Position numbers and translations under genes: made by a program. This document shows positions 21,569-63,049 of a stretch of DNA of 64,000 bases, one piece after another. The first letter of the stretch is position 1. Each line of letters opens with the position of its first letter. Location: contig DANP01000020.1 in assembly GCA_002499905.1 (NCBI GenBank), positions 186,054 through 250,053 of the forward strand. The letters run 5' to 3'. The notes under the pieces are model-generated. The model ran no database searches. It was not told the DNA's origin and saw only the letters and a program-made list of their open reading frames with translations. The stretch comes from Methanolinea sp. UBA277 (lineage in GTDB: Archaea > Halobacteriota > Methanomicrobia > Methanomicrobiales > Methanospirillaceae).

Positions 21569-22933
21569 TTATTTCACTACCGGAAAGCCGGCCTTCAGCC
21601 AAGCTGCCATGCCACCGAGGATATTGGCAATATCGGGATATCCGTTCCGGGCAAGGATGCTTGCCCCGAGGGATCCCTTGTACCCGGCATCGCAGTACAC
21701 GGCAATCGTCCGGTCCTTCGGTATCTCGGAGAGCCTGCCGGGGAGTTCTCCGATATAGATGTGGTGCGCTCCCGGTATCTTTCCGGCGCGGATAACGTTG
21801 CTGATGTCCCGGACATCGAGGAGGAAGAGATCCTTCTCCGTTCTTCGCCGTTCCAGCTCCTGGACGCTCCACGCACCGAATGTTCCGACAGGTCCAGCCG
21901 ATTTGAACCAGGCAGGGAACCCCCCGGCAAGGTAGCCTGCCAGGTTGTCGTACCCGAGCCGCACGAAGTGCCAGCTCACCTCCCGGAGGTTGCAGTTGAA
22001 ATCATCGATCAGGATGATGGGATTCTCAAAGGTCAGGAACCAGCCCATGAACGCCGGGAGACCCTCTTTCCAGATCGAGAGACTCCCGGGGATATGCCCG
22101 GCCGCAAACGAGGTCGGGGACCGGATGTCGAGGAGCTGGGCCCTGCCCTGGAGGTCCCTGACCTCTTTCACCCCGAATGCCTTCAGGTCAGGAAGGTGGT
22201 TGATGAGCGGCGCTCCCTCTTTGTTGTGCTTCTCCATCATTCTGAAATAGGGCGGCAGGTAGTGGTGCTCGATCACCTTCTTCCGGATGAATTCCTCTTT
22301 TGAGAGCTGCAGGAGCGGGTTTGAGCGCCTCTCGTAGCCGATGGTGGAGAACTCGTGGTCGCTGATCTCGGATCCGCAGACCGATCCGGCCCCGTGGGCA
22401 GGAAAGATGATGGTCTGATCACCGAGGGGGAGGAGTTTTCCGGCGATGCTCTCGTAGAGCATCTCCGAGACCAGGGGCCGCTTCTCTTCCCCGAAGAAGT
22501 CGGTCCTGCCCACCTCCCCGGCAAAGAGCGCATCACCGGTGAACACGGCATACGGAGCATCAGAGACTTCCCGGTCGGTCACCACGATCGAGATGCTCTC
22601 CAGAGTGTGACCAGGAGTCTCGAGCACCTTCAGTTCGACCGTGCCAAGCCGGACGACATACCCGTCTTTCACCGGTGTTCCATAGGCAAAGTCCATCTGG
22701 TGCCCGTGCAGGATCGCAGCACCGGTCCGTGCGGCAAGCTCGCTTGAGCCGATGACATAGTCCTCGTTCCGGTGCGTCTCGAAGATGTGGGTGATCTGCA
22801 CACCTGCATCCTGTGCGAGATCCAGGTACTCCTCAACGTCCCGCCTCGGATCGATGACTGCAGCCTGGCCGCCGGCGCTGATGAAGTAGGAGTTATGCGA
22901 TATCCCTTCGGATGAAATCTTTCGGAGAATCAT
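21569..22933 (-). CDS. MBL-fold hydrolase fused to two rhodanese domains
   Basis: 454 aa. N-terminal MBL fold ('ETHRNEDY', 'TPGHT', 'FTGDALF', 'PAHG'). The C-terminal rhodanese has active-site loop 'CDAGYKGS'. The first rhodanese lacks the Cys loop. Confidence 0.85.
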   Translation of the reverse strand: MILRKISSEGISHNSYFISAGGQAAVIDPRRDVEEYLDLAQDAGVQITHIFETHRNEDYVIGSSELAARTGAAILHGHQMDFAYGTPVKDGYVVRLGTVELKVLETPGHTLESISIVVTDREVSDAPYAVFTGDALFAGEVGRTDFFGEEKRPLVSEMLYESIAGKLLPLGDQTIIFPAHGAGSVCGSEISDHEFSTIGYERRSNPLLQLSKEEFIRKKVIEHHYLPPYFRMMEKHNKEGAPLINHLPDLKAFGVKEVRDLQGRAQLLDIRSPTSFAAGHIPGSLSIWKEGLPAFMGWFLTFENPIILIDDFNCNLREVSWHFVRLGYDNLAGYLAGGFPAWFKSAGPVGTFGAWSVQELERRRTEKDLFLLDVRDISNVIRAGKIPGAHHIYIGELPGRLSEIPKDRTIAVYCDAGYKGSLGASILARNGYPDIANILGGMAAWLKAGFPVVK

Positions 22934-23113
22934 ACGTTCAGCCCCTACCGGGAATGGCGTTTCTGGATCGATATACCTTTTTCCCGGGTTGCCGGGGCAA
23001 TAGAACTATGATGTTGTCAACGAGAGATTCTCCCGGATATGCCGGAAAACGGAATCTCCACCCGACTAATGAATGGTGGATTTCAAACAGCAGTATGAGG
23101 TGGTTGGCGAGGT

Positions 23114-23635
23114 ATGTCCCCCAATCGTGATAGAAAGCAGGAGTTCGTAAATGTCTCCAGTGACAGGACACGCGAGGAGATTATTTTCGCCGTTCTTTCG
23201 CTTCGGATGGCAATAGACAAACGAATTAAAAAGCTGGTCGATGCAGTAAATGATCTCCCTGATGTCTATACGTGCGGTTCATGTGGTGGGCATAAAGATC
23301 TGGAAAACAGGGAGAATCCTGTACCGGAAGGTTATTTTTATATTCAGTTTATCGTAGAACCAACAGAAAACGGGTTCTTATCGCTGGGTATAATCGACCT
23401 TGCGGCACGAAATATTGATAACGATGATTTAACCGTGAAAGTTTTGAACTGTACAGACAATCCAAAATTAGTCATGTTCAATATTTTAGGAAAAAATTGG
23501 GCAGACCCGGATGAAGTTGCGAAGGAAATAAAAGCTCTCTGCACAACGTGGGGGCTCTCTCTTCATGGAGTTCGTGCATATAAGAAAAATGTGAGGAGAA
23601 TGATTGCGTATAACAGGATTCAGCAGGATGCATAA
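23114..23635 (+). CDS. hypothetical protein in AT-rich island
   Basis: 173-aa ORF whose composition is visibly AT-rich compared with its neighbours. It contains 'VYTCGSCGGHKD'. I recognise no family. The start could instead be the ATG at 23207 ('MAIDKRIKK'). Confidence 0.55.
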   Translation: MSPNRDRKQEFVNVSSDRTREEIIFAVLSLRMAIDKRIKKLVDAVNDLPDVYTCGSCGGHKDLENRENPVPEGYFYIQFIVEPTENGFLSLGIIDLAARNIDNDDLTVKVLNCTDNPKLVMFNILGKNWADPDEVAKEIKALCTTWGLSLHGVRAYKKNVRRMIAYNRIQQDA

Positions 23636-23642
23636 CAGGGGT

Positions 23643-23662
23643 GTGGACACTACGAAATTTCA
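23643..23662. repeat. 20-nt direct repeat, copy 1 (GTGGACACTACGAAATTTCA)
   Basis: Identical at 19 of 20 positions to 24717-24736. It lies 8 nt after the stop of the 23114-23635 ORF. Confidence 0.9.
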
Positions 23663-23811
23663 ATTAGAAACACCACAATTTCAAAAACATTACAATTCAC
23701 TAATATTTTATATGGATTATACAAGCCTCCGGAAATATAACTTATAAAATGAAATTGTGCTTATTTCTTCTTTCAGGTTCAATTATTTTAAAAAAGGAAA
23801 TTTTTCAGGAG

Positions 23812-24624
23812 TTACCTGACCATGCCGGACTCGTAGTGCATGAGCTTGTCAAAGAGGGTGATCGCTCCGTCAACAGAGGTCTCCTCGGTGAACTCGATGC
23901 GCTCCATGAGAGTGGCCGGGTCGAACAGATCGCCGCGCCCCTCCTGGATCAGGACATCCATGTAGGCAGATGCGAATCCGACAGAGGGCACGTCACTGAC
24001 GAGCTCGGTGACCCGGAGGTCGTGGTTCAGCTCGACCGGGTGGTCGGCGGACGGCATGACGAACCTGCCGGTAGTGGTGGTCCGGACGTTGGCAACAGTC
24101 ATGTCGATGGTGCTGCCTGCCTGGGCCCTGTTGCAGTATGCCGGGAAGCTCTGGGCGTTAGCAGATGCGAACGGACAGATGACCTCCTCGACGGTGACTG
24201 ACTCATTGCCGGCTCCGTCTACCATGATGTTGTCGCTGGACACGACGGAGGCGCTGTCAATGCCGATAAAGGCGATCTGCTTGGTAGCCTCGACGTTCCA
24301 CTGGCCGCTGATCTGGCCGGAGGTCTCGATGTCGAGCTCCTTGTCGTAGAGCATCAGGCCCACGCCATGGGTCTGGGTGTCCTCGGTGTAGGTCGATTCG
24401 TAGATTGCACCGGGTGCATTAAGAACGGGCACTCCGGGCAGACCGTCAACATCATCAGTGATCCTCCACTGCATTTCAGTGGCTGATGCGAAGTTACCGA
24501 TCACGTTCACAGACGTGGAGGTAACGATGCCTTGGGTCTCGGGGACCGGGTCGATTCCACGGTCGGCCATGGCAAACCCGGTAATAAGAGCTAATGCGAT
24601 GATTAAAATTGCGAGTTTCTTCAT
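23812..24624 (-). CDS. secreted protein, unknown function (270 aa)
   Basis: Signal peptide 'MKKLAILIIALALITGFAMA'. The mature part is acidic and Thr/Ser/Val-rich. Codons are strongly NNC/NNG-biased despite AT-rich flanks. Oligo-T tracts follow the stop on the minus strand. Confidence 0.8.
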   Translation of the reverse strand: MKKLAILIIALALITGFAMADRGIDPVPETQGIVTSTSVNVIGNFASATEMQWRITDDVDGLPGVPVLNAPGAIYESTYTEDTQTHGVGLMLYDKELDIETSGQISGQWNVEATKQIAFIGIDSASVVSSDNIMVDGAGNESVTVEEVICPFASANAQSFPAYCNRAQAGSTIDMTVANVRTTTTGRFVMPSADHPVELNHDLRVTELVSDVPSVGFASAYMDVLIQEGRGDLFDPATLMERIEFTEETSVDGAITLFDKLMHYESGMVR

Positions 24625-53185: not shown

Positions 53186-53881
53186 GTGACACCCGCATAC
53201 AGTATCATCATCCCGGCCTACAACGAGGAGAACCGGATCCGGGGTCTCCTCGACCAGATGCCTGGCATGGCGGGCCAGTACATCGTTGTCTGTGACGGGA
53301 CTGATGCCACTCCCGGGATTGTTGTATCGTTCGCCCGGGCCCATCCCGATCTTGACCTGGTCTGCCTGACATACAACCGGAGGCTTGGGAAAGGGGGTGC
53401 GGTCAGGGAGGGGTTCGCCCATGCTGCCGGTCCCCTGGTCGGGTTCATGGATGCCGACGGGTCGACTTCCCTCTCCCAGATGGAAGATCTCATCGACAGT
53501 ATCAACGGTGCCGACGGCATCATCGGCTCGCGCTGGCTGCCGGGCTCCGTGATTCCGGTACAGCAGGGGATTGCACGGCGGCTCGAGAGCAGGGTGTTCA
53601 ACCTCCTGGTCCGTCTCCTCTTCTTGCTCTCGTTTTCAGATACGCAGTGCGGTGCAAAAGTATTTAAAAAATCAGCCATCGATGCTGTGGTAGATGATAT
53701 GGTCTCGACGGGATTCGAGTTTGACGTCGAGCTCCTGTGGCGGCTCTCCCGGAAGGGGTTCCTGGTCAGGGAGCACCCGATCACCTGGGAAAACCAGGGG
53801 GCATCACGAGTGAAAACGATGGATATCTTCCGGATGCTCGCCGCCCTCATCTCCCTTCGCCTTGGAGGGGCGGGGCGATGA
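53186..53881 (+). CDS. family-2 glycosyltransferase (dolichyl-phosphate hexose synthase-like)
   Basis: GTG start. 'SIIIPAYNEE', DxD 'FMDADGS' and 'DTQCGAKVF'. No C-terminal TM is visible apart from the hydrophobic tail 'IFRMLAALISL'. Confidence 0.88.
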   Translation: MTPAYSIIIPAYNEENRIRGLLDQMPGMAGQYIVVCDGTDATPGIVVSFARAHPDLDLVCLTYNRRLGKGGAVREGFAHAAGPLVGFMDADGSTSLSQMEDLIDSINGADGIIGSRWLPGSVIPVQQGIARRLESRVFNLLVRLLFLLSFSDTQCGAKVFKKSAIDAVVDDMVSTGFEFDVELLWRLSRKGFLVREHPITWENQGASRVKTMDIFRMLAALISLRLGGAGR

Positions 53882-55701
53882 CTGACGGGCGCTTCGAGGA
53901 GATCCGGCGCGAATCCTTCCGCCTCTACGAGGAGGGACGATATGCCGAATCGCTGGAACAGTGCCGTGCCGCCGGCACCGCCGCATCCGACCCGCAGCTG
54001 GCCATTCTTGCAGCCCGCAACCTCTTCAAGCTGGGCCGCTTCGATGAGGCGGAGGCGTATGTCCGGGATCTCATCCAGAAGATGCCGGACACCTCCTACC
54101 TCCACAGTTTCCTGGGACAGATCCTCGAGGAGCGGGGAGACGACACCGCGGTGTCCGAGCATGCACTGGCCGTTCTGCTGGACCCGACAAACCAGGAAGC
54201 CCTCCGGAGCTATGCCACGTACATGATGTCAAAGGGGGATCACCGGATGGCCGTTCCGGCCCTGAAGAAACTGGCTGCCCTGACCGGGCGGGAGGATGAC
54301 GCCCGGTGCCTGATCCGGGCGCTGACCGCGTCAGGCCAGGCCGCAGACGCGCTGTCCCTGTTTGGCAGGGACGTGAGGCGGCGGGAGGATGACCTGGACC
54401 ATATCTCCGCCCTGATGGGTGCCGGACGCTATCCGGAAGCCGCCCGTGAGGCGGCCGCGGCCTACCGGTCGTCCGGAAAGCTCCCGTTTGCCCGGATATA
54501 TCTCCGTGCCCGTGCCCTGAAGGACCCGGAAGCCGCGGCCCCGGAATACAAAGATTATTTCTCCATCCTCAAAGACCCTGGAATAGGTCTTGACTATGCA
54601 CTGCTGCTCCGGGCGCTCGGCAGACCGGGAGAGGCAATGGCCGTCTGCCGTGAGCTGCTTGATTCGGACCAGGGGGTTCCCGACTACGCCGTCCGCCTCC
54701 TGACCTGCCGGCTGAATGCCGATCTCAGTGAGAAGGAGCGGGCTTCGGGATGCTACGATCATCTCATCAGGGATGCACTGCAGAACCTCGACGATCCTGA
54801 ATTCCTCACGGACCTGCTCTCGGGATACCGGGAGTTTCTCCTCACCCACTACCCGGTACGGGATGCGGAGCGCCGGTTTCTTGAGATGGTATCCGCCAAC
54901 CCGCAGGTAGTTTGCCTGCTCGCCACGGCCCGCCTGTATGAGGATATCGGTGACCTCTCCGAAGCCCGTTCCTACTCATACCGGGCTTACCGGAGTGACT
55001 TCCTGCTGGGGGGGATGGCCTATGCCCGGTTCCTGGCCAGGCAGAACGAATTCCGGGAGAGCGAGAAGGTTCTCCTCTACGTGCTGAACAATGCAAAGCG
55101 GACCCGTGAGATTGAAACGGTTGCCGGGCTGATCCTGGATGACCAGTGGAAGCTCTACCGCAGAGCCCGTCTGCTTGAACGACTGGTCGCGATCCTCGAT
55201 CAGCGGATTTCCCTGCTGAGCTCGGACGGCCTTGAATACCTCGCTGTCGCCTGTCTCGTCTCCGCCAGCTCTGCCCGGCGGGAGAAGGACTACCTGCGGT
55301 GCAAGGAGTACTGCCTGCGGGGGCTTGATGCAGTCCCGGCGTTCTCGACCCATATCCGCCCGGGAGATTTCCTGGAGCTCATCCAGGGCTGCAAGGAGGA
55401 GGCGGTCTGTGACCCCCCGGTCATGAGGACGCGGGGTCAGGCAGAAGAGCCCGGACAGGAGTACACCCGGGCGGTCAGGGAGTTCATGGAAACCTGTGAC
55501 GATCAGGAACGCCGTATTCTCGAGTATCTGCTCGAGCACAACGAGGCGAGCGAGATCGAGCTTCGCCGCCTCCTGAACACGAGGAGGGTGGTCGGGATCA
55601 TGAACCGGATCATACAGAAGGCGGCCGCGTCAGGAATCGGAATCATTGAGAAGCGGGGAGTTGGAGAAGGAGGAGAGATCTATGCCTATATCGCAGGGTG
55701 A
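53878..55701 (+). CDS. TPR/helical-repeat protein with C-terminal wHTH-like domain (607 aa)
   Basis: The ATG at 53878 forms an ATGA overlap with the GT2 stop. The N-terminal half shows repeated 34-residue TPR-like units ('YEEGRYAESLEQCRAA', 'LGRFDEAEAYVRDLI', 'GDHRMAVPALKKLA'). The last ~70 aa, 'DDQERRILEYLLEHNEASEIELRRLLNTRRVVGIMNRIIQKAAASGIGIIEK', look like a winged helix. Confidence 0.85.
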   Translation: MTDGRFEEIRRESFRLYEEGRYAESLEQCRAAGTAASDPQLAILAARNLFKLGRFDEAEAYVRDLIQKMPDTSYLHSFLGQILEERGDDTAVSEHALAVLLDPTNQEALRSYATYMMSKGDHRMAVPALKKLAALTGREDDARCLIRALTASGQAADALSLFGRDVRRREDDLDHISALMGAGRYPEAAREAAAAYRSSGKLPFARIYLRARALKDPEAAAPEYKDYFSILKDPGIGLDYALLLRALGRPGEAMAVCRELLDSDQGVPDYAVRLLTCRLNADLSEKERASGCYDHLIRDALQNLDDPEFLTDLLSGYREFLLTHYPVRDAERRFLEMVSANPQVVCLLATARLYEDIGDLSEARSYSYRAYRSDFLLGGMAYARFLARQNEFRESEKVLLYVLNNAKRTREIETVAGLILDDQWKLYRRARLLERLVAILDQRISLLSSDGLEYLAVACLVSASSARREKDYLRCKEYCLRGLDAVPAFSTHIRPGDFLELIQGCKEEAVCDPPVMRTRGQAEEPGQEYTRAVREFMETCDDQERRILEYLLEHNEASEIELRRLLNTRRVVGIMNRIIQKAAASGIGIIEKRGVGEGGEIYAYIAG

Positions 55702-56983
55702 CGCAGCCGAGAAGAACAAGCTCGAGAGTATCAATATCATCAATGCCCTCAGGAGGGGGACCGTCCCGGCCGGGGGCCTCGAGCGGATCGCGGTCGGCAT
55801 CGGGATGGAAGAAGGGGTGATCGGTGCCCAGTTCGACTACGTCGCGAAGGGTGGCGGCGATCTCAAGTTCATCCGGGGGGATTACGGGAGCGGGAAAACA
55901 TTTCTTGTTGCCCGGGCACTCGAGATCGCCCGGGAGAAAGGATTTGTCACCGCCCACGTGGTCGTCTCCCCATCAGCACCGCTCTACCGGCAGAAGAATA
56001 TCTACCAGCAGATCTGTGCAAGCCTCCGGACCCGTGAAGAGGAGCACGCGGTCAAGGCGGTCATCGACACCTGGCTCTTCTCGATTGAGGAACGCCTGCT
56101 TCGGGTGAGCGACCAGCCTCTTGACGAGGAGAGCCTGGAGAAGGCGACCCTCAAGGAGATAGAGACGGCCCTTGCCGGTATCTCCGAGGTGAACTCTTCC
56201 CTCGCTGCGGCGCTACGGACCTACTACCGGGCCAACAATGCCGGTGACTTCCAGACCGCCCAGTCGGCCATCGGGTGGATCGGTGCAGAGCCGAACATCG
56301 GGCGGGAATTCAAGCAGAAGGCCGGGATCCGGGGGGATGTGGATGAGACCTATGCCCTCATCTTCCTCAAAGGCCTGGTCAGGATCATCGTTAATGCCGG
56401 GTATGCCGGCCTCGCGGTTGCCGTCGATGAGCTCGAGACCACCCAGGTCCTTCCGAGAAACCAGCGGGACAAGGCCTACAATACCCTCCGTCTCCTGATC
56501 GATTCGCTCGACCGCGGTGAGCTTCCGTACTGCTACTACCTCTTCACCGGAACCCCGGCATTCTTCGAAGGTCCCCGCGGGGTCCGCTCCCTCCCGTCCC
56601 TTGCCGACCGGATCGGGGTCGTCGAGACCGGGGAGTTCCGGAACCCCCGCCAGCCCCAGATCTTCCTGAACCGGTTCGATGCAAAGAAGCTCGAGCAGGT
56701 GGCCCAGAAAGTCATCCAGATCTACTCGGTGGCCTACACCGAGGTTGACCGCACCCGGATATCCCACCGGTTCATCAGGGCCATGATCGGGAAGGTGACC
56801 GGGAAGTTCGGCGGCAGGGTCGATGTCATCCCCCGGATTTTCTTAAAAGAGTTCGTGGATGTGATCGACAAGTGCGAGCTGTATGACGACTATGATCCCT
56901 GGGAGAGCTATCAGTTCGACACCCGCCACCTGAAAGGGGAACTCCGCGAGGAGGAGGAGGCGGTCATGGTGGTTGAGTTCTGA
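55682..56983 (+). CDS. P-loop ATPase, DUF2791 / BrxC-BrxD-type ATP-binding family (by recollection)
   Basis: The ATG at 55682 follows GGAGAAGGAGGAGAG and overlaps the TPR gene by 20 nt. N-terminal 'IINALRRGTVPAGGLERIAVG', Walker A 'GDYGSGKTF' and Walker B 'LAVAVDELE'. 433 aa. Confidence 0.8.
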   Translation: MPISQGDAAEKNKLESINIINALRRGTVPAGGLERIAVGIGMEEGVIGAQFDYVAKGGGDLKFIRGDYGSGKTFLVARALEIAREKGFVTAHVVVSPSAPLYRQKNIYQQICASLRTREEEHAVKAVIDTWLFSIEERLLRVSDQPLDEESLEKATLKEIETALAGISEVNSSLAAALRTYYRANNAGDFQTAQSAIGWIGAEPNIGREFKQKAGIRGDVDETYALIFLKGLVRIIVNAGYAGLAVAVDELETTQVLPRNQRDKAYNTLRLLIDSLDRGELPYCYYLFTGTPAFFEGPRGVRSLPSLADRIGVVETGEFRNPRQPQIFLNRFDAKKLEQVAQKVIQIYSVAYTEVDRTRISHRFIRAMIGKVTGKFGGRVDVIPRIFLKEFVDVIDKCELYDDYDPWESYQFDTRHLKGELREEEEAVMVVEF

Positions 56984-57134: not shown

Positions 57135-57205
57135 TTTAACACTTGGTTAATGTTAAAAGGAAATATTCATCACTGGTTACAGGTAACGTGATAGTCGTGG
57201 TAGCG

Positions 57206-58153
57206 ATGAAAAAGACACATCAGGGTTTTATCCTGCTGACTATGGCGGCCATCGTGGTGATGGGCGTCTGGTTTGCCGGGTGCACCACCCCCACGACTCC
57301 TGCTCCCCCGGAGAAGGAGAAAGTACTGCTGGCAACGACCACCAGCCTGTATGACACCGGGCTGCTTGACTACCTCAAGCCGATGTTTGAGGAGCAGTAC
57401 AACGTCGATCTCCTGATCACCTCCCAGGGAACCGGGAAGGCTCTTGAGATCGCCAGCCGCGGCGATGCCGACGTCCTGGCCGTCCATTCCCCGGCCCAGG
57501 AAAAGACCTACATGGACTCGGGCAAGGGACTGAACCACCGGTGCTTTGCCTACAACTACTTCATCATCGTCGGCCCGGAGAGCGATCCGGCCGGAATCAG
57601 GGGGATGGAGCCGGTAGCGGCATTCACAAAGCTCTACGAGCTAGGCACGGCCGGTATTCCGGACGTGGTATTCATATCGCGCGGGGACAACTCGGGAACG
57701 CACTCGAAGGAGAAGTCCATCTGGGCAACGGCAGGCTACAACTACACGACTGATATCCAGAAGTCCGGTGCCTGGTATGTCGAAGCCGGAAGAGGTATGG
57801 GCGAGACCCTGCAGCTGGCAAACGAGAAGCAGGCGTATACCCTGTCTGATGAGGGTACCTACCTCGCTTACAAGGGTGACCTCGACCTTGTACCGGTCAT
57901 TGACCAGGGAGACATCCTGCTGAACGTGTACAGTGTCATTACCGTGTACAGCGACAAGTTCACTCCCGAGGAGATTGCCGCGGCCAACAACTTCGTTGAC
58001 TTTATGATCTCTCCTGAGGTGCAGGACACCATCGGCACGTTCGGTGTGGACAAGTACGGAAAGAACCTCTTTACCCCGATGAGCGGCCAGTGCAGTCAGT
58101 TCTCCTGCGACTGCACCAGTCCGGCCACGGAAACCGCACCGGCGGCTGCCTGA
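57206..58153 (+). CDS. tupA: tungstate ABC transporter substrate-binding protein TupA
   Basis: The ATG at 57206 gives 'MKKTHQGFILLTMAAIVVMGVWFAGC', a signal peptide with a lipobox-like Cys. TupA hallmarks 'LATTTSLYDTGLL', 'GTGKALEIASRGDADV' and 'ISRGDNSGTH'. Confidence 0.88.
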   Translation: MKKTHQGFILLTMAAIVVMGVWFAGCTTPTTPAPPEKEKVLLATTTSLYDTGLLDYLKPMFEEQYNVDLLITSQGTGKALEIASRGDADVLAVHSPAQEKTYMDSGKGLNHRCFAYNYFIIVGPESDPAGIRGMEPVAAFTKLYELGTAGIPDVVFISRGDNSGTHSKEKSIWATAGYNYTTDIQKSGAWYVEAGRGMGETLQLANEKQAYTLSDEGTYLAYKGDLDLVPVIDQGDILLNVYSVITVYSDKFTPEEIAAANNFVDFMISPEVQDTIGTFGVDKYGKNLFTPMSGQCSQFSCDCTSPATETAPAAA

Positions 58154-58340: not shown

Positions 58341-58442
58341 GCCGCATGGAATGTAATGTAATGGGGGCATGCGGTCGTATCAATTCTGCATGATTCGGAG
58401 GCAGATGCCGGGGTGTTTCGGGCAACCCGTGTTCTGCCTCCG
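58341..58442. other. two stable hairpins between convergent genes
   Basis: H1: GCCGCATG..(19 nt)..CATGCGGT at 58341-58375. H2: CGGAGGCAGA..(inner 4-bp stem)..TCTGCCTCCG at 58396-58442, ending 4 nt from the stop of the MOT1-like gene. Confidence 0.6.
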
Positions 58443-58445
58443 CCT

Positions 58446-59561
58446 TTACACACCTGATCCATCCTGACCGGGTTTCTGCTTTCTCTGTTCCAGCACCCAG
58501 GCAAGCGCAAGCCCCGCAAAGAAAGCCACGGTGATGGATATTGCCAGGGAGAGGACCCCGATCATGAGGGTGACAATGAATGAATCTGTCTTGAGTCCGT
58601 GCCGTCCAAGCTCAATGGCGACAAAGACGAGCAATGCGGCGTAGAAGCCCGGGGAGATAAGGGTAAGCCATGCGGGGCTGGTGAAGAGGAGGGCAAACGA
58701 GATGAGAATGAGGCCGGCATACACGTTTGCCCCTCCGGTCCGCGCCCCGAACCGGTACTGGCCGGCCAGTCCCCCTGCGCCATGACACATCGGCATCCCG
58801 CCGAAGGGAACAGAAGTGAGGTTCATCAGCCCGATGGTTCCGGAGAGTTTTTTCGGCCGGATATCGGCTGAGAAGAGATCCGTTGCCAGGAGCGAGGTGG
58901 CGAGGATGGCATTGGTGAGGGTCAGGATAACCTGGGGAACCACCAGTACCGAGAGTGCGGTGAGCGTATCCTGTGCGGTGGGAATGCCCAGGGAAGGGAG
59001 TGATGGTGGGGCGAACGGCGGGAGGCCCTGGAGGTATATCCCGGCTGCAAAGGCGATGATGATGACCACGATCGAGGAGAGGTCCGGGAGCCGGTACCGG
59101 TATGCCAGGAGGAACCCTGCACCGATGATTGCTGCTCCCACCATAAAGGGAAGGGGGTCAGGAACGAGGTACCTCGCAGCGGTCCTGATCAGGACCAGGG
59201 CAAGACCCAGCTGCACCCCCCGTACGACCGGTATGGGAATGTACTTCTGGATGATATTGAGCCAGTCGGTGAAGGCGAGGAGGAGAAAGACGATGCCGAG
59301 GATGAGCCCTGATGCCACAATCACGCCGCCAGAGAGCGATTCGGCAACCGCGATGACTGCAATGGCTTTCATCGGCTCGATGGGGACCGGGTAGCGGTAA
59401 TAGAATCCCGTAATAACAAACCAGACCCCGAGGAAGAGGAGTATGGGGCTGATAGAGAGGGCGCCGGTTGCGGCAAGGGCAAGGGAGAGTGGGAGGATAG
59501 TCCCGAAGTCACCCACACTGCCGGCGAGTTCGCGGATGCCGAACGAGAGATCCTTCACCAT
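58446..59561 (-). CDS. MOT1/MOT2-family molybdate transporter (SulP-related)
   Basis: 371 aa and polytopic. It carries the two MOT1 signature regions 'ELAGSVGDFGTILPL' and 'FGGMPMCHGAGGLAGQYRFGARTG'. Confidence 0.85.
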   Translation of the reverse strand: MVKDLSFGIRELAGSVGDFGTILPLSLALAATGALSISPILLFLGVWFVITGFYYRYPVPIEPMKAIAVIAVAESLSGGVIVASGLILGIVFLLLAFTDWLNIIQKYIPIPVVRGVQLGLALVLIRTAARYLVPDPLPFMVGAAIIGAGFLLAYRYRLPDLSSIVVIIIAFAAGIYLQGLPPFAPPSLPSLGIPTAQDTLTALSVLVVPQVILTLTNAILATSLLATDLFSADIRPKKLSGTIGLMNLTSVPFGGMPMCHGAGGLAGQYRFGARTGGANVYAGLILISFALLFTSPAWLTLISPGFYAALLVFVAIELGRHGLKTDSFIVTLMIGVLSLAISITVAFFAGLALAWVLEQRKQKPGQDGSGV

Positions 59562-59593
59562 CTTCCGGTCCCTTCTGAAGGGGAGCGATAACC

Positions 59594-60406
59594 CTAGCGG
59601 GCCCTGATGAGGGACCCCGGTTTGCCGCCGGAAAGAACCTTCCGGATATTCCCGGGTTCATGCCCGTTCACGATCTTGACCTCGTGCACGTTCTTGGCGT
59701 ACCGGAGCATCTCGACCACCTTCGGCTCGAGGACCATATCCTCGAGATCCATCTCCAGGAGTTCTGAGGCGGTGATATCGGAAATGAGATCCGCGTCCGG
59801 GTGGGTAAAGGGATTATTGGTATAGAGGCCGTCAACGTTCTTCACCAGCACCAGGTTCTTTGCCCCGAGCACCTCTGCGGCAAGGAAGGCGCCGGTATCA
59901 GTCCGGTTGGGAGGAATGGCCCCGATCTCTGCCGGCTGTTCATAGAGGCCGTAGGGGGGTGTCCCGTGGGTCACGGGGAGGACGCCGAGGCTCATCAGCA
60001 TCGGGAGCTCGAGAAGGTCCCCGGTATGGATCCGGGTTCCGTGCCACCGTGAGAGCAGGGTGGAGACCATGATGGCATTCTGTTCGCTGACCTTGCCGGC
60101 AAGCTCGGCCAGGATTCCCGTGGGCATGCCGAGATCGAGGCCGACATCCAGGATATGCCGGACCCTGACGCCCCCGCCGGTCACCACCAGGATCTGGTTC
60201 TGGAGCGAGAGCTCCCCGATCTCTTCCAGGAGCGGGAGGAGGATGTCCCTTCCATAGTCGATGATACCGTGCCCGCCGATCTTCACCACGTTCAGGTCAG
60301 GCATCAGCCGGATCTGCGGCCTGCCTTCGTATCTCTCCAGCAACCCCCGCCTGACAAGGGACTCTCCCTGGAGTTTGTTTGCCACCTCGAACCGATCGCG
60401 TTTCAT
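59594..60406 (-). CDS. molybdenum-storage-protein (MosA/MosB)-like amino-acid-kinase-fold protein
   Basis: ATG at 60406; the track TTG is at 60418. These stretches align with my recollection of A. vinelandii MosA/B rather than UMP kinase: 'IRLMPDLNVVKIGGHGIIDYGRDILLPLLEEI', 'GGGVRVRHILDVGLDLGMPTG', 'IPPNRTDTGAFLAAEVLGA' and 'KNVDGLYTNNP'. It lies 32 nt upstream of the MOT1-like gene. Confidence 0.75.
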   Translation of the reverse strand: MKRDRFEVANKLQGESLVRRGLLERYEGRPQIRLMPDLNVVKIGGHGIIDYGRDILLPLLEEIGELSLQNQILVVTGGGVRVRHILDVGLDLGMPTGILAELAGKVSEQNAIMVSTLLSRWHGTRIHTGDLLELPMLMSLGVLPVTHGTPPYGLYEQPAEIGAIPPNRTDTGAFLAAEVLGAKNLVLVKNVDGLYTNNPFTHPDADLISDITASELLEMDLEDMVLEPKVVEMLRYAKNVHEVKIVNGHEPGNIRKVLSGGKPGSLIRAR

Positions 60407-60457
60407 GGCCTTCTTCAATACATTTATATCCCCGATAGTTAATACAGTACGCTCACA

Positions 60458-60496
60458 ACCAGTTGGTATAACAAATGAAATAGTTTACCAGTTGGT
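60458..60496. promoter_or_regulatory. two exact copies of ACCAGTTGGT spaced 29 bp apart in the divergent promoter region
   Basis: Copies at 60458-60467 and 60487-60496, read directly. A TATA-like 'TTTATAT' lies at 60423-60429. Confidence 0.6.
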
Positions 60497-60511
60497 TGAG
60501 AGGTGCATGAG

Positions 60512-60715
60512 ATGAAGATCTATGTCAGAGAGCGGTTGAAGGTTCGGGAAGGGGTCCGGCAGCCGATGTACAGGATCGTGGCTGTCACCGGCGGGCAGGT
60601 CCAGATCGAGCTGACCCATTTCCGGAAGTTCGAGATCGAGCAGATCGCAAAGGATGTCGGCGCCGAAGTCGTCTACCTTGAAGAGATTCCGGATGAGGAG
60701 AAGCAGAAGCACTAA
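60512..60715 (+). CDS. small hypothetical protein (67 aa) in the Mo/W island
   Basis: The ATG at 60512 is preceded by GAGAGGTG. Translation: 'MKIYVRERLKVREGVRQPMYRIVAVTGGQVQIELTHFRKFEIEQIAKDVGAEVVYLEEIPDEEKQKH'. A T5 run follows directly after the stop. Confidence 0.55.
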   Translation: MKIYVRERLKVREGVRQPMYRIVAVTGGQVQIELTHFRKFEIEQIAKDVGAEVVYLEEIPDEEKQKH

Positions 60716-60797: not shown

Positions 60798-61148
60798 ATG
60801 ACCTCGCTCTCCATTGACCTGATCTTTGAATCAGTGCTCCGAATCCACCTCTTTGAGGAAAAAGCGATAGCAATAACCTTTTCTGAGTCCGGAATCCGGA
60901 TCAAGCTGCCTACCACGCGGAAGCTGGCAGAATTCCTCGATGTCCCGCACTACTATGTCCTCCCCTACTTCGCCATGATGGAGCAGGAAGCGCTGGTGAC
61001 ACGCGCCGAACGGGTGGGTATCATGACAACTCCGGCAGGTACGGAACGGTACCTGGCCCTCCTGAAGGAACGGTACCCGGCTGAAGGGGTGGCAATCCTC
61101 GGGCCGACCATTTACACCGAGCTGACCGGCGGGGTGTCCCGGGAATAA
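60798..61148 (+). CDS. small wHTH-like protein (116 aa), candidate regulator
   Basis: ATG at 60798. The segment 'TTRKLAEFLDVPHYYVLPYFAMMEQEALVTRAERVGIMTTPAG' resembles a helix-turn-helix plus wing. I recognise no family. Confidence 0.55.
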   Translation: MTSLSIDLIFESVLRIHLFEEKAIAITFSESGIRIKLPTTRKLAEFLDVPHYYVLPYFAMMEQEALVTRAERVGIMTTPAGTERYLALLKERYPAEGVAILGPTIYTELTGGVSRE

Positions 61149-61150
61149 AA

Positions 61151-61173
61151 AACCAACTGATACACCAACAGGT
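61151..61173. promoter_or_regulatory. two reverse-orientation copies of the CAGTTGGTT-type motif upstream of tupB
   Basis: AACCAACTG (61151-61159) is the reverse complement of CAGTTGGTT. CACCAACAG (61163-61171) is the reverse complement of CTGTTGGTG. The GTTAAC palindrome lies adjacent. Confidence 0.5.
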
Positions 61174-61274: not shown

Positions 61275-61961
61275 ATGAGTGACGTCGTCGAGGGAATAGT
61301 CCAGGCGATCCAGCTGATCGTCTCTCTTGATCAAGAAGTCCTCGAGATCACCGCGCGGTCCCTTATGATCTCACTCTCGGCAACCCTTGTCGGTTCGCTG
61401 ATTGCTATTCCCCTCGGCGGATTCATCCATTTCAAGGAGTTCGGGGGGAAACGGGGGCTCATTACCATCATCCAGACCCTCTATGCCCTCCCTACCGTGC
61501 TTGCCGGCCTCCTCGTCTTCCTCCTCCTCTCCCGTTCCGGCCCGTTCGGGTTCCTCGGCCTGATGTTCACCCCTACCGGCATGATTATCGGCCAGACGGT
61601 GCTGATCATCCCGCTGATGCTCGGGATGACCCTGATCGCCCTTTCCGGGGTGAGCCGGACGAAACAGGATACCGTGATCTCTCTCGGGGCAACCAGTCTC
61701 CAGACGGTCATCACCATTGTTAAGGAGGCCAGGTTCGCCATCCTCGGCGGGGTTATCCTCGGCTTTGGCAGGGCGATTTCGGAAGTCGGCGCTGCCATGA
61801 TCATCGGCGGCAATATCCGGGGGTATACCCGGGTCCTGACCACCGCCATTGCCCTTGAGACCTCGATGGGTAACCTCTCGCTCTCCATCGCCCTCGGCAT
61901 CATCCTCCTGGCAATCGCCATGGTTGTTACCGGATTCCTCTTCCTGGTCCAGGAGCGCTGA
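61275..61961 (+). CDS. tupB: tungstate ABC transporter permease TupB
   Basis: 228 aa with five or six TM helices. The ABC permease EAA-like loop is 'ISLGATSLQTVITIVKEA'. It is followed by the ATPase gene. Confidence 0.85.
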   Translation: MSDVVEGIVQAIQLIVSLDQEVLEITARSLMISLSATLVGSLIAIPLGGFIHFKEFGGKRGLITIIQTLYALPTVLAGLLVFLLLSRSGPFGFLGLMFTPTGMIIGQTVLIIPLMLGMTLIALSGVSRTKQDTVISLGATSLQTVITIVKEARFAILGGVILGFGRAISEVGAAMIIGGNIRGYTRVLTTAIALETSMGNLSLSIALGIILLAIAMVVTGFLFLVQER

Positions 61962-61966
61962 CAGCC

Positions 61967-63049
61967 ATGATCGAGTTTGACCACGTGGTGATGAATTTCG
62001 GCGAGAAGGAAGTCCTGAAGGAGCTGTCGTTCTCCATCCAGGATGGCGAGATCTTCACCTTCATCGGGCCGAGCGGATCCGGGAAGACCACCATCCTCCG
62101 CCTTATCGATATACTGGAACGTCCGACAGCGGGAAAAATCCTGATCGATGGAACCGATGTCACGACCCTCCGGGACCGGGAAAAGATCCAGGTACGGCGG
62201 AAGATGGGCATGGTCTTCCAGAAGCCTTCACCCCTCCGTGGATCGGTCTACAGCAATGTCGCTATCGGGCTCCATTTCCGGAAGATTGGCCATCAGGAGA
62301 TCGATGACCGGGTCCATGAAGCACTGGACCTGGTCGGGCTGAAGGGATATGAAGAGCGGAAAGCAACCACCCTCTCTGGCGGGGAGATGCAGCGGGTAGC
62401 AATCGCCCGGGCCGTTGCCACAAAACCCGATGTGCTCCTCCTCGATGAACCGACCGCCAACCTCGACCCGCTATCAACCGAGAAGATCGAGAGCCTGATC
62501 GGGGCGCTCAAGGAGCGCTTCGGGATCACCGTGGTGTTGTCCACCCATGACATGGTGCAGGGGCAGCGGCTGGCCGACCGCATCGCCGTGGTCATCGATG
62601 GCCGGATCGGCCAGATCGGCACATCAAAGGAGATCTTCTACCATCCTATGAACCGGGCTGTGGCGCATATGGTCGGTGTGGAGAATATCTTTGAAGGTAT
62701 CGTTGCCGCAAATGAAGCCGGGCTTGCAGACATTGATGTAAACGGCACGAGGATCGTTGCTGCTTCACACTCCTCACCCGGCACACCGGTCACCATCTAC
62801 ATGCGACCGGAGGATATCACCTTCTATGCAAAAGACAGCATCCGGAGCAGTGCACGGAACATGTTTTCCGGACGGATCACTAAGGTCGTTCCCATCGGGC
62901 CGATGGTGCGGATGAAGGTCGATGCCGGAGTAAAACTGACAGCGGTTATCACGCAACGTTCGTTCGAGGAGCTCGGCCTTGAGCTGGGGAAGGAGACCGA
63001 ACTCACCTTCAAGGCCAGCGCCATTTACGTGGTTGAACGAACAGAATGA
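61967..63049 (+). CDS. tupC: tungstate/molybdate ABC transporter ATP-binding protein with C-terminal TOBE domain
   Basis: Walker A 'GPSGSGKTT', signature 'LSGGEMQRV' and Walker B 'LLLDEPT'. The C-terminal ~120 aa form a TOBE-like beta domain ('FSGRITKVVPIGPMVRMKVDAG'). Confidence 0.9.
   Translation: MIEFDHVVMNFGEKEVLKELSFSIQDGEIFTFIGPSGSGKTTILRLIDILERPTAGKILIDGTDVTTLRDREKIQVRRKMGMVFQKPSPLRGSVYSNVAIGLHFRKIGHQEIDDRVHEALDLVGLKGYEERKATTLSGGEMQRVAIARAVATKPDVLLLDEPTANLDPLSTEKIESLIGALKERFGITVVLSTHDMVQGQRLADRIAVVIDGRIGQIGTSKEIFYHPMNRAVAHMVGVENIFEGIVAANEAGLADIDVNGTRIVAASHSSPGTPVTIYMRPEDITFYAKDSIRSSARNMFSGRITKVVPIGPMVRMKVDAGVKLTAVITQRSFEELGLELGKETELTFKASAIYVVERTE

Follow-up and report, generated by a model that had tools for sequence, protein, structure and literature searches.

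Within a window of 64,000 nucleotides from the methanogenic archaeon Methanolinea sp. UBA277 (positions 186,054 to 250,053 of contig DANP01000020.1, "the window" denoting this whole stretch of DNA), we found a gene whose product of 270 amino acids (aa) is with near certainty, as judged from its sequence, a molybdenum storage protein (MoSto) family member and not the uridylate (UMP) kinase PyrH. To our knowledge, MoSto is the only protein that builds polyoxometalate clusters with ATP, and it has been studied in one bacterium. When all PDB chains were searched with phmmer, the top 11 distinct sequences were all Azotobacter vinelandii MoSto, with the beta subunit at 192 bits (E 1.2e-55) and the alpha subunit at 154 bits (E 7e-44), whereas the best UMP kinase in the PDB reached 35 bits (E 1e-7). 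BLASTP identity was 42% to MosB (239 residues) and 37% to MosA (266 residues), and by score the window protein is the more beta-like.

The four sequence blocks that an initial annotation had listed as shared with MosA/MosB are present in both the window protein and MosA (PDB 2OGX_A). The first reads IRLMPDLNVVKIGG in the window protein and IRLLPWLQVVKIGG in MosA, the second GGGVRVRHILDVGLDLGMPTG in the window protein with a counterpart in MosA, the third IPPNRTDTGAF and IPPHRADTGAF, and the fourth NVDGLYTNNP and NVDGIYTADP, respectively. For comparison with PyrH, the sequences of P. furiosus, A. fulgidus and E. coli were taken from PDB alignments. PyrH (e.g. P. furiosus 2BRI and A. fulgidus 2IJ9) shares the amino-acid-kinase fold, the Gly-rich loops and a VDGVY..DP motif with the window protein, but lies in another gene context and lacks the N-terminal arm of about 35 residues that the alignment shows to be common to the window protein, MosA and MosB. 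It also differs in that an insertion of 13-17 residues (PPY...IPP), which reads TPPYGLYEQPAEI-GAIPPNRTD in the window protein and is likewise found in MosA and MosB, replaces the PyrH loop GGTHPGHTTD, the THPGHTTD part of which we take to be the UMP-binding loop.

Pfam recognized the generic AA_kinase domain only (E 4e-25), and the best NCBIfam model was pyrH_arch, with 60.4 bits against a cutoff of 158, while pyrH_bact gave 35.6 against 244. Genuine MosA and MosB obtain 52.7 and 59.0 bits on the same pyrH_arch model. Because these score alike, we read the match as no more than the background similarity that all of the MoSto family bears to UMP kinases, and the statement in the initial annotation that the protein does not look like UMP kinase is thereby borne out. 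Isopentenyl phosphate kinase and MfnE were rejected as identities, their models being matched far below cutoff (40 vs 120 bits and 24 vs 300 bits, respectively). The names given to orthologs are in conflict, "uridylate kinase" or "UMP kinase" at NCBI (P0006, P0010, P0095, P0111 and others) standing against "molybdenum storage protein" at IMG/JGI. Since NCBIfam lacks a model for MoSto, the orthologs are probably misannotated systematically at NCBI.

Phylogeny agrees with similarity in placing the protein in the MoSto family. In neighbor-joining trees the archaeal clade was monophyletic in 60/60 bootstraps, and the MoSto family stood apart from PyrH in 60/60. Rooting was attempted with three PyrH outgroups, and the supported nodes are those of the archaeal clade and the whole family only; deeper nodes were weak, with the archaeal clade joining the single-gene clusters P0123/P0126 in 30/60 bootstraps and that group joining the beta-type subunits in 5/60. 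Out of 5.8 billion proteins searched, 1968 were relatives at E<=1e-10, and among the best 120 of these (66-98% identity) all named ones came from Methanomicrobiales. When 1.84 billion cluster representatives were scanned exhaustively with HMMER, only 47 clusters were returned at E<=1e-30, and the MoSto-like family is therefore small. No Methanomicrobiales were found among the other family clusters that carry names, these being bacterial: Methylocella MosA, Ca. Glassbacteria and Ca. Alcyoniella.

Species genomes were scanned with patterns specific to the 270-aa protein, which gave 45 loci, one per genome, distributed over Methanolinea, Methanoregulaceae, Methanoculleus, Methanocalculus, Methanospirillaceae, Methanocorpusculaceae and Methanocellaceae. 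When a family hidden Markov model (HMM) was run on all open reading frames of the related loci (635 kb) and of the 64-kb window, neither a second family member nor a pyrH was found, and no second member occurs within 10 kb of the MoSto-like gene in the related loci. At this local scope the single subunit gene of the initial annotation is well supported. Adjacent pairs of family genes were instead found in the bacterial metagenomic loci L056 and L057.

A few relatives deserve separate mention. The ortholog in the long-read metagenome-assembled chromosome OY969100.1 (L048 10001-10809) appears frameshifted, and may be a pseudogene or the result of an assembly indel. The closest non-archaeal single-gene clade (P0412; L055 3-3257) belongs to an apparent operon that also encodes large and small AcnX-like subunits; the same locus holds a protein of 248 aa similar to methanogenesis marker 11 or TiaS, and no Mo/W (molybdenum/tungsten) transporters were seen nearby. 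The paired bacterial genes (L056 5931-8825 and L057 2807-7576) adjoin a CbiQ-like (ECF T-component-like) membrane protein, and P0127, a metagenomic protein of 732 aa, appears to join a MoSto-like domain to a membrane domain called CbiQ-like by analogy. These neighbors and the fusion hint at a membrane-coupled variant of MoSto.

The features around the MoSto-like gene are given below in window coordinates. The coordinates, the gene layout and the 32-nt gap were all found as first described.

57143..58153, plus strand: TupA-like substrate-binding protein, convergent with the MOT1-like gene (Pfam PBP_like_2, E 7e-38)
58395..58442, minus strand: strong RNA hairpin directly 3' of the MOT1 stop codon, identified by inverted repeat and folding energy
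58446..59561, minus strand: MOT1-family putative molybdate/tungstate permease, 371 aa (SulP-like, without STAS)
59562..59593, minus strand: intergenic spacer between the MoSto-like and MOT1-like genes, exactly 32 nt as read from the sequence
59594..60406, minus strand: MoSto-like gene, 270 aa from the ATG at 60406, amino-acid-kinase fold
60407..60511, unstranded: divergent control region of 105 nt with palindromes and a TATA-like box
60512..60715, plus strand: s70, a conserved 67-aa protein, divergent from the MoSto-like gene
60798..61148, plus strand: s123, a 116-aa winged-helix-like protein and putative transcription regulator, co-oriented with s70
61152..61173, unstranded: two near-copies of the palindrome with one mismatch each (ACCAACTGAT and ACCAACAGGT), preceding the TupB-like gene
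61275..61961, plus strand: TupB-like ATP-binding cassette (ABC) permease (NCBIfam ABC_perm1, 243 bits, above cutoff)
61967..63049, plus strand: ABC ATPase with a C-terminal TOBE (oxyanion-binding) domain (Pfam ABC_tran and TOBE)

The open reading frame of the MoSto-like gene extends over 59594..60418 on the minus strand, and an in-frame upstream TTG at 60418 would yield 274 aa. The TupA-like gene probably begins with the ATG at 57206, after which comes a lipobox-like FAGC; alternative calls give 315 and 336 aa.

The gene 32 nt downstream of the MoSto-like gene had been called a MOT1-type transporter with both signature regions, and this description holds. Pfam MFS_MOT1 (PF16983) matches the 371-aa protein in two stretches with 158.9 bits against a cutoff of 30, no STAS domain was identified in it by Pfam, and about 11 hydrophobic segments are present. 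The MOT1 signatures are reportedly PxPVQPMKxIxAxA and FGxMPxCHGxGGLAxQxxFGxRxG; the corresponding regions of the window protein are YPVPIEPMKAIAVIA (YPVPIEPMK...) and FGGMPMCHGAGGLAGQYRFGARTG. The cores P.P.EPMK and GG.PMCHGAGG.A..YRFGARTG are conserved across 24 archaeal MOT1 orthologs. No solved homolog of the protein was found by sequence. Two conserved motifs have been described as typical of MOT1 proteins (bioRxiv 10.1101/102517). Recent surveys give MOT1 as absent from prokaryotes (PMC6147048, PMC13144720), and prokaryotic members of PF16983 have been noted in sulfate reducers (PMC5840216). Eukaryotic MOT1 proteins (Arabidopsis MOT1.1 and MOT1.2, Chlamydomonas MOT1) likewise consist of MFS_MOT1 in two repeats with both signatures and without STAS, and one of them, MOT1.2, has a comparable storage-linked role, i.e. 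it exports molybdate from a storage compartment (PMC10780190). The window permease differs from these in being archaeal and only 371 aa long, with a putative transport function for which Mo or W may be the substrate.

Co-transcription of the MoSto-like and MOT1 genes is plausible, since the gap measures 32 nt and holds no terminator-like site, and since the adjacency is conserved in 11/37 loci. The spacer folds no better than shuffled sequence (z +0.73), and a scan of bacterial type, which says only so much about archaea, identified no terminator-like or promoter-like site in it. Directly after the MOT1 stop codon, on the other hand, the hairpin reaches -29.8 kcal/mol (z -3.96), with 0/200 shuffles folding as well, and it likely marks the 3' end of the two-gene transcript. 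No RNA sequencing runs containing the region were found; those found were DNA metagenomes only.

In the initial annotation both genes were placed in a tungstate (Tup) uptake cluster. What stands of this is that Tup-like genes flank the pair on both sides. The tungstate label itself is another matter, as all three proteins fall below the TupABC equivalog cutoffs: the TupA-like protein, which contains a TTTS stretch, matches NCBIfam TupA with E 9e-54 and 183 bits against 400, the TupB-like permease matches TupB with E 1.5e-44 and 152 bits against 320, and the TOBE-carrying ATPase finds its best match in WtpC with 308 bits against 440. The Tup assignment is therefore made at the family level only and implies no metal specificity.

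Conservation of the neighborhood was surveyed by tblastn, with the window proteins as queries against those 44 loci whose ortholog is full-length. Of the 21 loci flanked on each side by 5 kb or more, 18 contain Tup-like ABC genes and 15 contain MOT1. The 11 out of 37 loci with MOT1 directly downstream on the same strand belong to Methanolinea/Methanoregulaceae, and in Methanoculleus and Methanocalculus the MOT1 gene is close by on the opposite strand. In M. bourgensis the MoSto-like gene is situated between two Tup-like systems, another binding protein and MOT1. Despite such rearrangements, the linkage to Mo/W genes spans Methanoregulaceae, Methanoculleus, Methanocalculus, Methanospirillaceae and Methanocellaceae, and its recurrence is the main evidence for a role of the MoSto-like protein in Mo/W homeostasis, which we consider quite probable.

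Two other observations were made in the window. At 53737-56983 on the plus strand lie a 654-aa TPR protein and, after it, a BrxD-like ATPase (403 bits on NCBIfam BREX_BrxD, above cutoff). The BrxD-like gene adjoins the TupA-like gene again in several Methanoregulaceae loci, and no other BREX genes were seen nearby. In the region 22001-24000 the G+C content falls to 0.51, compared to about 0.6 elsewhere, and this may be foreign or RNA-coding DNA.

The 105-nt divergent region contains two exact ACCAGTTGGT palindromes, at 60458-60467 and 60487-60496, and an A/T-rich TATA-like box at 60421-60430. In most orthologous loci ACCA-N2-TGGT typically lies about 60 nt before the ATG of the MoSto-like gene, and 25 of the 40 exact matches in 635 kb of loci occur no more than 250 nt upstream of MoSto-like, s70 or tupA genes. 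The palindrome is thus probably the operator of a Mo/W regulon, and s123 the protein that would bind it. The gene for s123 follows s70 in 30/38 loci, and its product has an invariant HTH/wing-like (HTH, helix-turn-helix) core, PTTR.LA....PHYY.LP...ME...L..R.ER.GI.T, although its similarity to known HTH families is sub-threshold (GntR E 0.065, DtxR-type E 0.27). The most constant neighbor of the MoSto-like gene is not MOT1 but s70, which is adjacent and divergent in 34/41 loci and present in 39/41. Its family comprises about 1300 proteins named "hypothetical" and has no Pfam model, and no match to s70 was found in Pfam, NCBIfam or PDB sequence profiles, nor a significant one in Foldseek. An AlphaFold2 (AF2) model built with an alignment has a predicted local distance difference test score (pLDDT) of 81 and a beta-beta-alpha-beta fold. 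Homologs of s70 are also found beside two single-gene MoSto-like genes outside Methanomicrobiales (L054 and L055), in the latter adjoining a DUF134 DNA-binding protein, whereas the two paired (mosAB-like) bacterial loci have none.

Together, s70, s123 and the palindrome make up a candidate for a new Mo/W-responsive regulatory module, in which s70 could be the separate sensing part for s123, if such a part exists. ModE-type regulators offer a parallel, since there, too, a winged-helix protein is encoded beside genes for Mo/W transport and a divergent promoter region contains a palindromic operator, but s123 lacks Mop domains, and no sequence similarity between it and ModE could be detected.

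As to the function of the MoSto-like protein, the nucleotide motifs of the kinase fold are kept in the archaeal clade (KIGG, TGGG..RH, RTDTGA and VDGLY..P). The KIGG lysine, K42, is conserved in 44/45 archaeal sequences, and the family alignment shows no variation at the D and G of RTDTG or at the P of DG.Y..P. Conserved within the archaeal clade is also a motif of the N-terminal arm, ESL..R..L, while KxGGHGxxDYG and GTPPYGLYExP are clade-specific and near-invariant (at least 90% of the sequences). A single-sequence AF2 model of the 270-aa protein had a pLDDT of 35, too low to use.

From these features and the genomic context, a sequence of events may be proposed. Tungstate or molybdate would enter the cell via the Tup-like ABC importer and/or the MOT1-type permease, the MoSto-like protein would use ATP to trap and sequester the oxyanion inside the cell, and the trapped metal would be a reserve for pterin-cofactor enzymes. 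By analogy with UMP kinase and with (alpha-beta)3 MoSto, the protein is most likely a homo-oligomer, probably a hexamer, PyrH being a homohexamer and the likely template for such an assembly. The island is probably switched from the shared divergent promoter region with its ACCA-N2-TGGT palindromes, the likely regulator being s123, possibly together with s70. Storage of both Mo and W with a need for ATP is known from A. vinelandii MoSto (PMC6448029). Whether the archaeal homo-oligomer in the same way carries out ATP-driven polynuclear Mo/W storage is, in our judgment, evenly poised. The fuller scheme, i.e. a minimal homo-oligomeric MoSto storing W (or Mo) in Methanomicrobiales/Methanocellales, fed by MOT1 and governed by a two-protein regulator in which s70 would sense the oxyanion and s123 bind ACCA-N2-TGGT, is put forward as a tentative and rather doubtful one.

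Several points weigh against storage of the Azotobacter kind. In A. vinelandii MoSto, alpha-Glu129 and alpha-His156 are covalent ligands of the Mo8 cluster, and the Mo3/W3 cluster on the threefold axis is held by three alpha-His140 (PMC8154434). At the positions of alpha E129, H140 and H156 the archaeal clade has H (35/45) or K, L (38/45) and G (45/45), respectively; MosB likewise is without these alpha ligands. Molybdate and ATP reportedly bind the beta subunit, with the N-terminal arm of alpha locking the site and Met-beta149 proposed as a gate. The MosB sequence indeed has Met at beta149, where the archaeal clade has a conserved Thr. Such residue differences argue against a one-to-one copy of the Azotobacter pockets, and the archaeal protein is also without the alpha/beta pair which builds the asymmetric pockets of the known MoSto cage. 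Furthermore, the AcnX-like context of P0412 hints that some single-subunit members of the family may do something else. Storage is nevertheless still compatible with the loss of the three alpha ligands, as a large part of the metal stored by A. vinelandii MoSto contacts the protein non-covalently, largely via hydrophobic residues (PMC6294228).

The same observations can be read as those of an enzyme that handles molybdate or tungstate with ATP but builds no polynuclear clusters, be it in oxyanion activation (a "molybdate kinase"), cofactor hand-over, W/Mo discrimination, buffering or detoxification. The retained ATP motifs and beta-like character combined with the missing alpha-type covalent ligands speak for this, and the Mo/W transport context fits it equally well; the catalytic molybdate/ATP site of A. 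vinelandii is moreover said to lie on the beta subunit. Since the non-covalent share of the stored metal leaves storage possible, and since the cage-forming insertion specific to the family has been kept along with the N-terminal arm, we regard such an enzyme as unlikely, if still a serious contender. A small-molecule kinase unrelated to Mo/W, beside which the transporters would be incidental neighbors, is improbable. It could draw on the sister single-gene clade (P0412, L055) with its AcnX-like subunits and marker 11/TiaS-like protein, and on the matches to the isopentenyl phosphate kinase and MfnE models, but those matches are weak and the linkage to Tup-like and MOT1 genes is kept across several lineages despite rearrangements.

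That the protein is the housekeeping PyrH is scarcely credible: the NCBI names and the best NCBIfam model point that way, but the score on this model is no different from that of genuine MosA and MosB, PDB MoSto is matched with an E-value of 1e-55 compared to 1e-7 for UMP kinases, the GGTHPGHTTD loop is replaced by the insertion, and the neighbors are always Mo/W genes. A hetero-complex, in which s70 would take the place of the second subunit as a structural or regulatory partner, is compatible with the storage model. The constancy of s70 as a neighbor suggests this, as do its occurrence beside two single-gene clades outside Methanomicrobiales and its absence from the two paired bacterial loci. 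On the other hand, s70 is divergent from the MoSto-like gene and, in L055 (DUF134) as well as here, has the same orientation as a DNA-binding-like protein, an arrangement that fits a regulatory role better, the paired-locus comparison rests on two loci only, and s70 has no structural similarity to known proteins. We hold a partner role of s70 in such a complex to be rather unlikely.

Returning to storage by the MoSto-like protein itself, its closest known counterpart is A. vinelandii MoSto (MosA/MosB; PDB 2OGX, 4F6T and 6GU5), with which it shares the fold family, 37-42% identity over the whole length, the N-terminal arm, the PPY...IPP insertion, the ATP-binding motifs and the genomic link to Mo/W uptake. 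It differs in being encoded by one gene, in lacking E129, H140 and H156, in the Thr at beta Met149 and in its clade-specific motifs, as well as in its host, a strictly anaerobic methanogen, and its partners, i.e. the MOT1 permease, s70 and s123. Molbindin/Mop/TOBE storage proteins (e.g. Eubacterium limosum Tub) resemble it in the intracellular buffering of Mo/W that is proposed for it and in having genes near Mo/W ABC transporters, but these have an unrelated fold and bind mononuclear oxyanions with no ATP. At this locus a TOBE domain is found only on the ABC ATPase.

MoSto has been described as without known homologs (PMC6448029), and an evolutionary study from 2026 regards MosAB as rare and late-evolving and MOT1 as restricted to eukaryotes (PMC13144720). 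Our literature search turned up no paper linking MoSto to methanogens or to archaeal homologs, in agreement with the initial annotation, which had considered such a protein uncharacterised in archaea. The finding is not categorically new, as automated IMG annotation already says "molybdenum storage protein". What is new in relation to known MoSto, as far as the sequences tell, is the single subunit, the missing alpha ligands, the archaeal host and the new partner genes.

The identification provides a basis for correcting the "uridylate kinase" annotations at NCBI. The archaeal single-subunit clade offers a simpler system in which to approach the minimal needs of ATP-driven metal deposition, and at the same time a candidate W/Mo reserve for methanogens, which rely on W or Mo for the first step in reducing CO2. 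If storage is true, formylmethanofuran and formate dehydrogenases are candidate users of the stored metal. Polyoxometalate storage would then not be limited to diazotrophic bacteria, nor MOT1 transport to eukaryotes, and Mo/W storage would need to be re-dated, the recent post-Archean date having drawn on MosAB alone.

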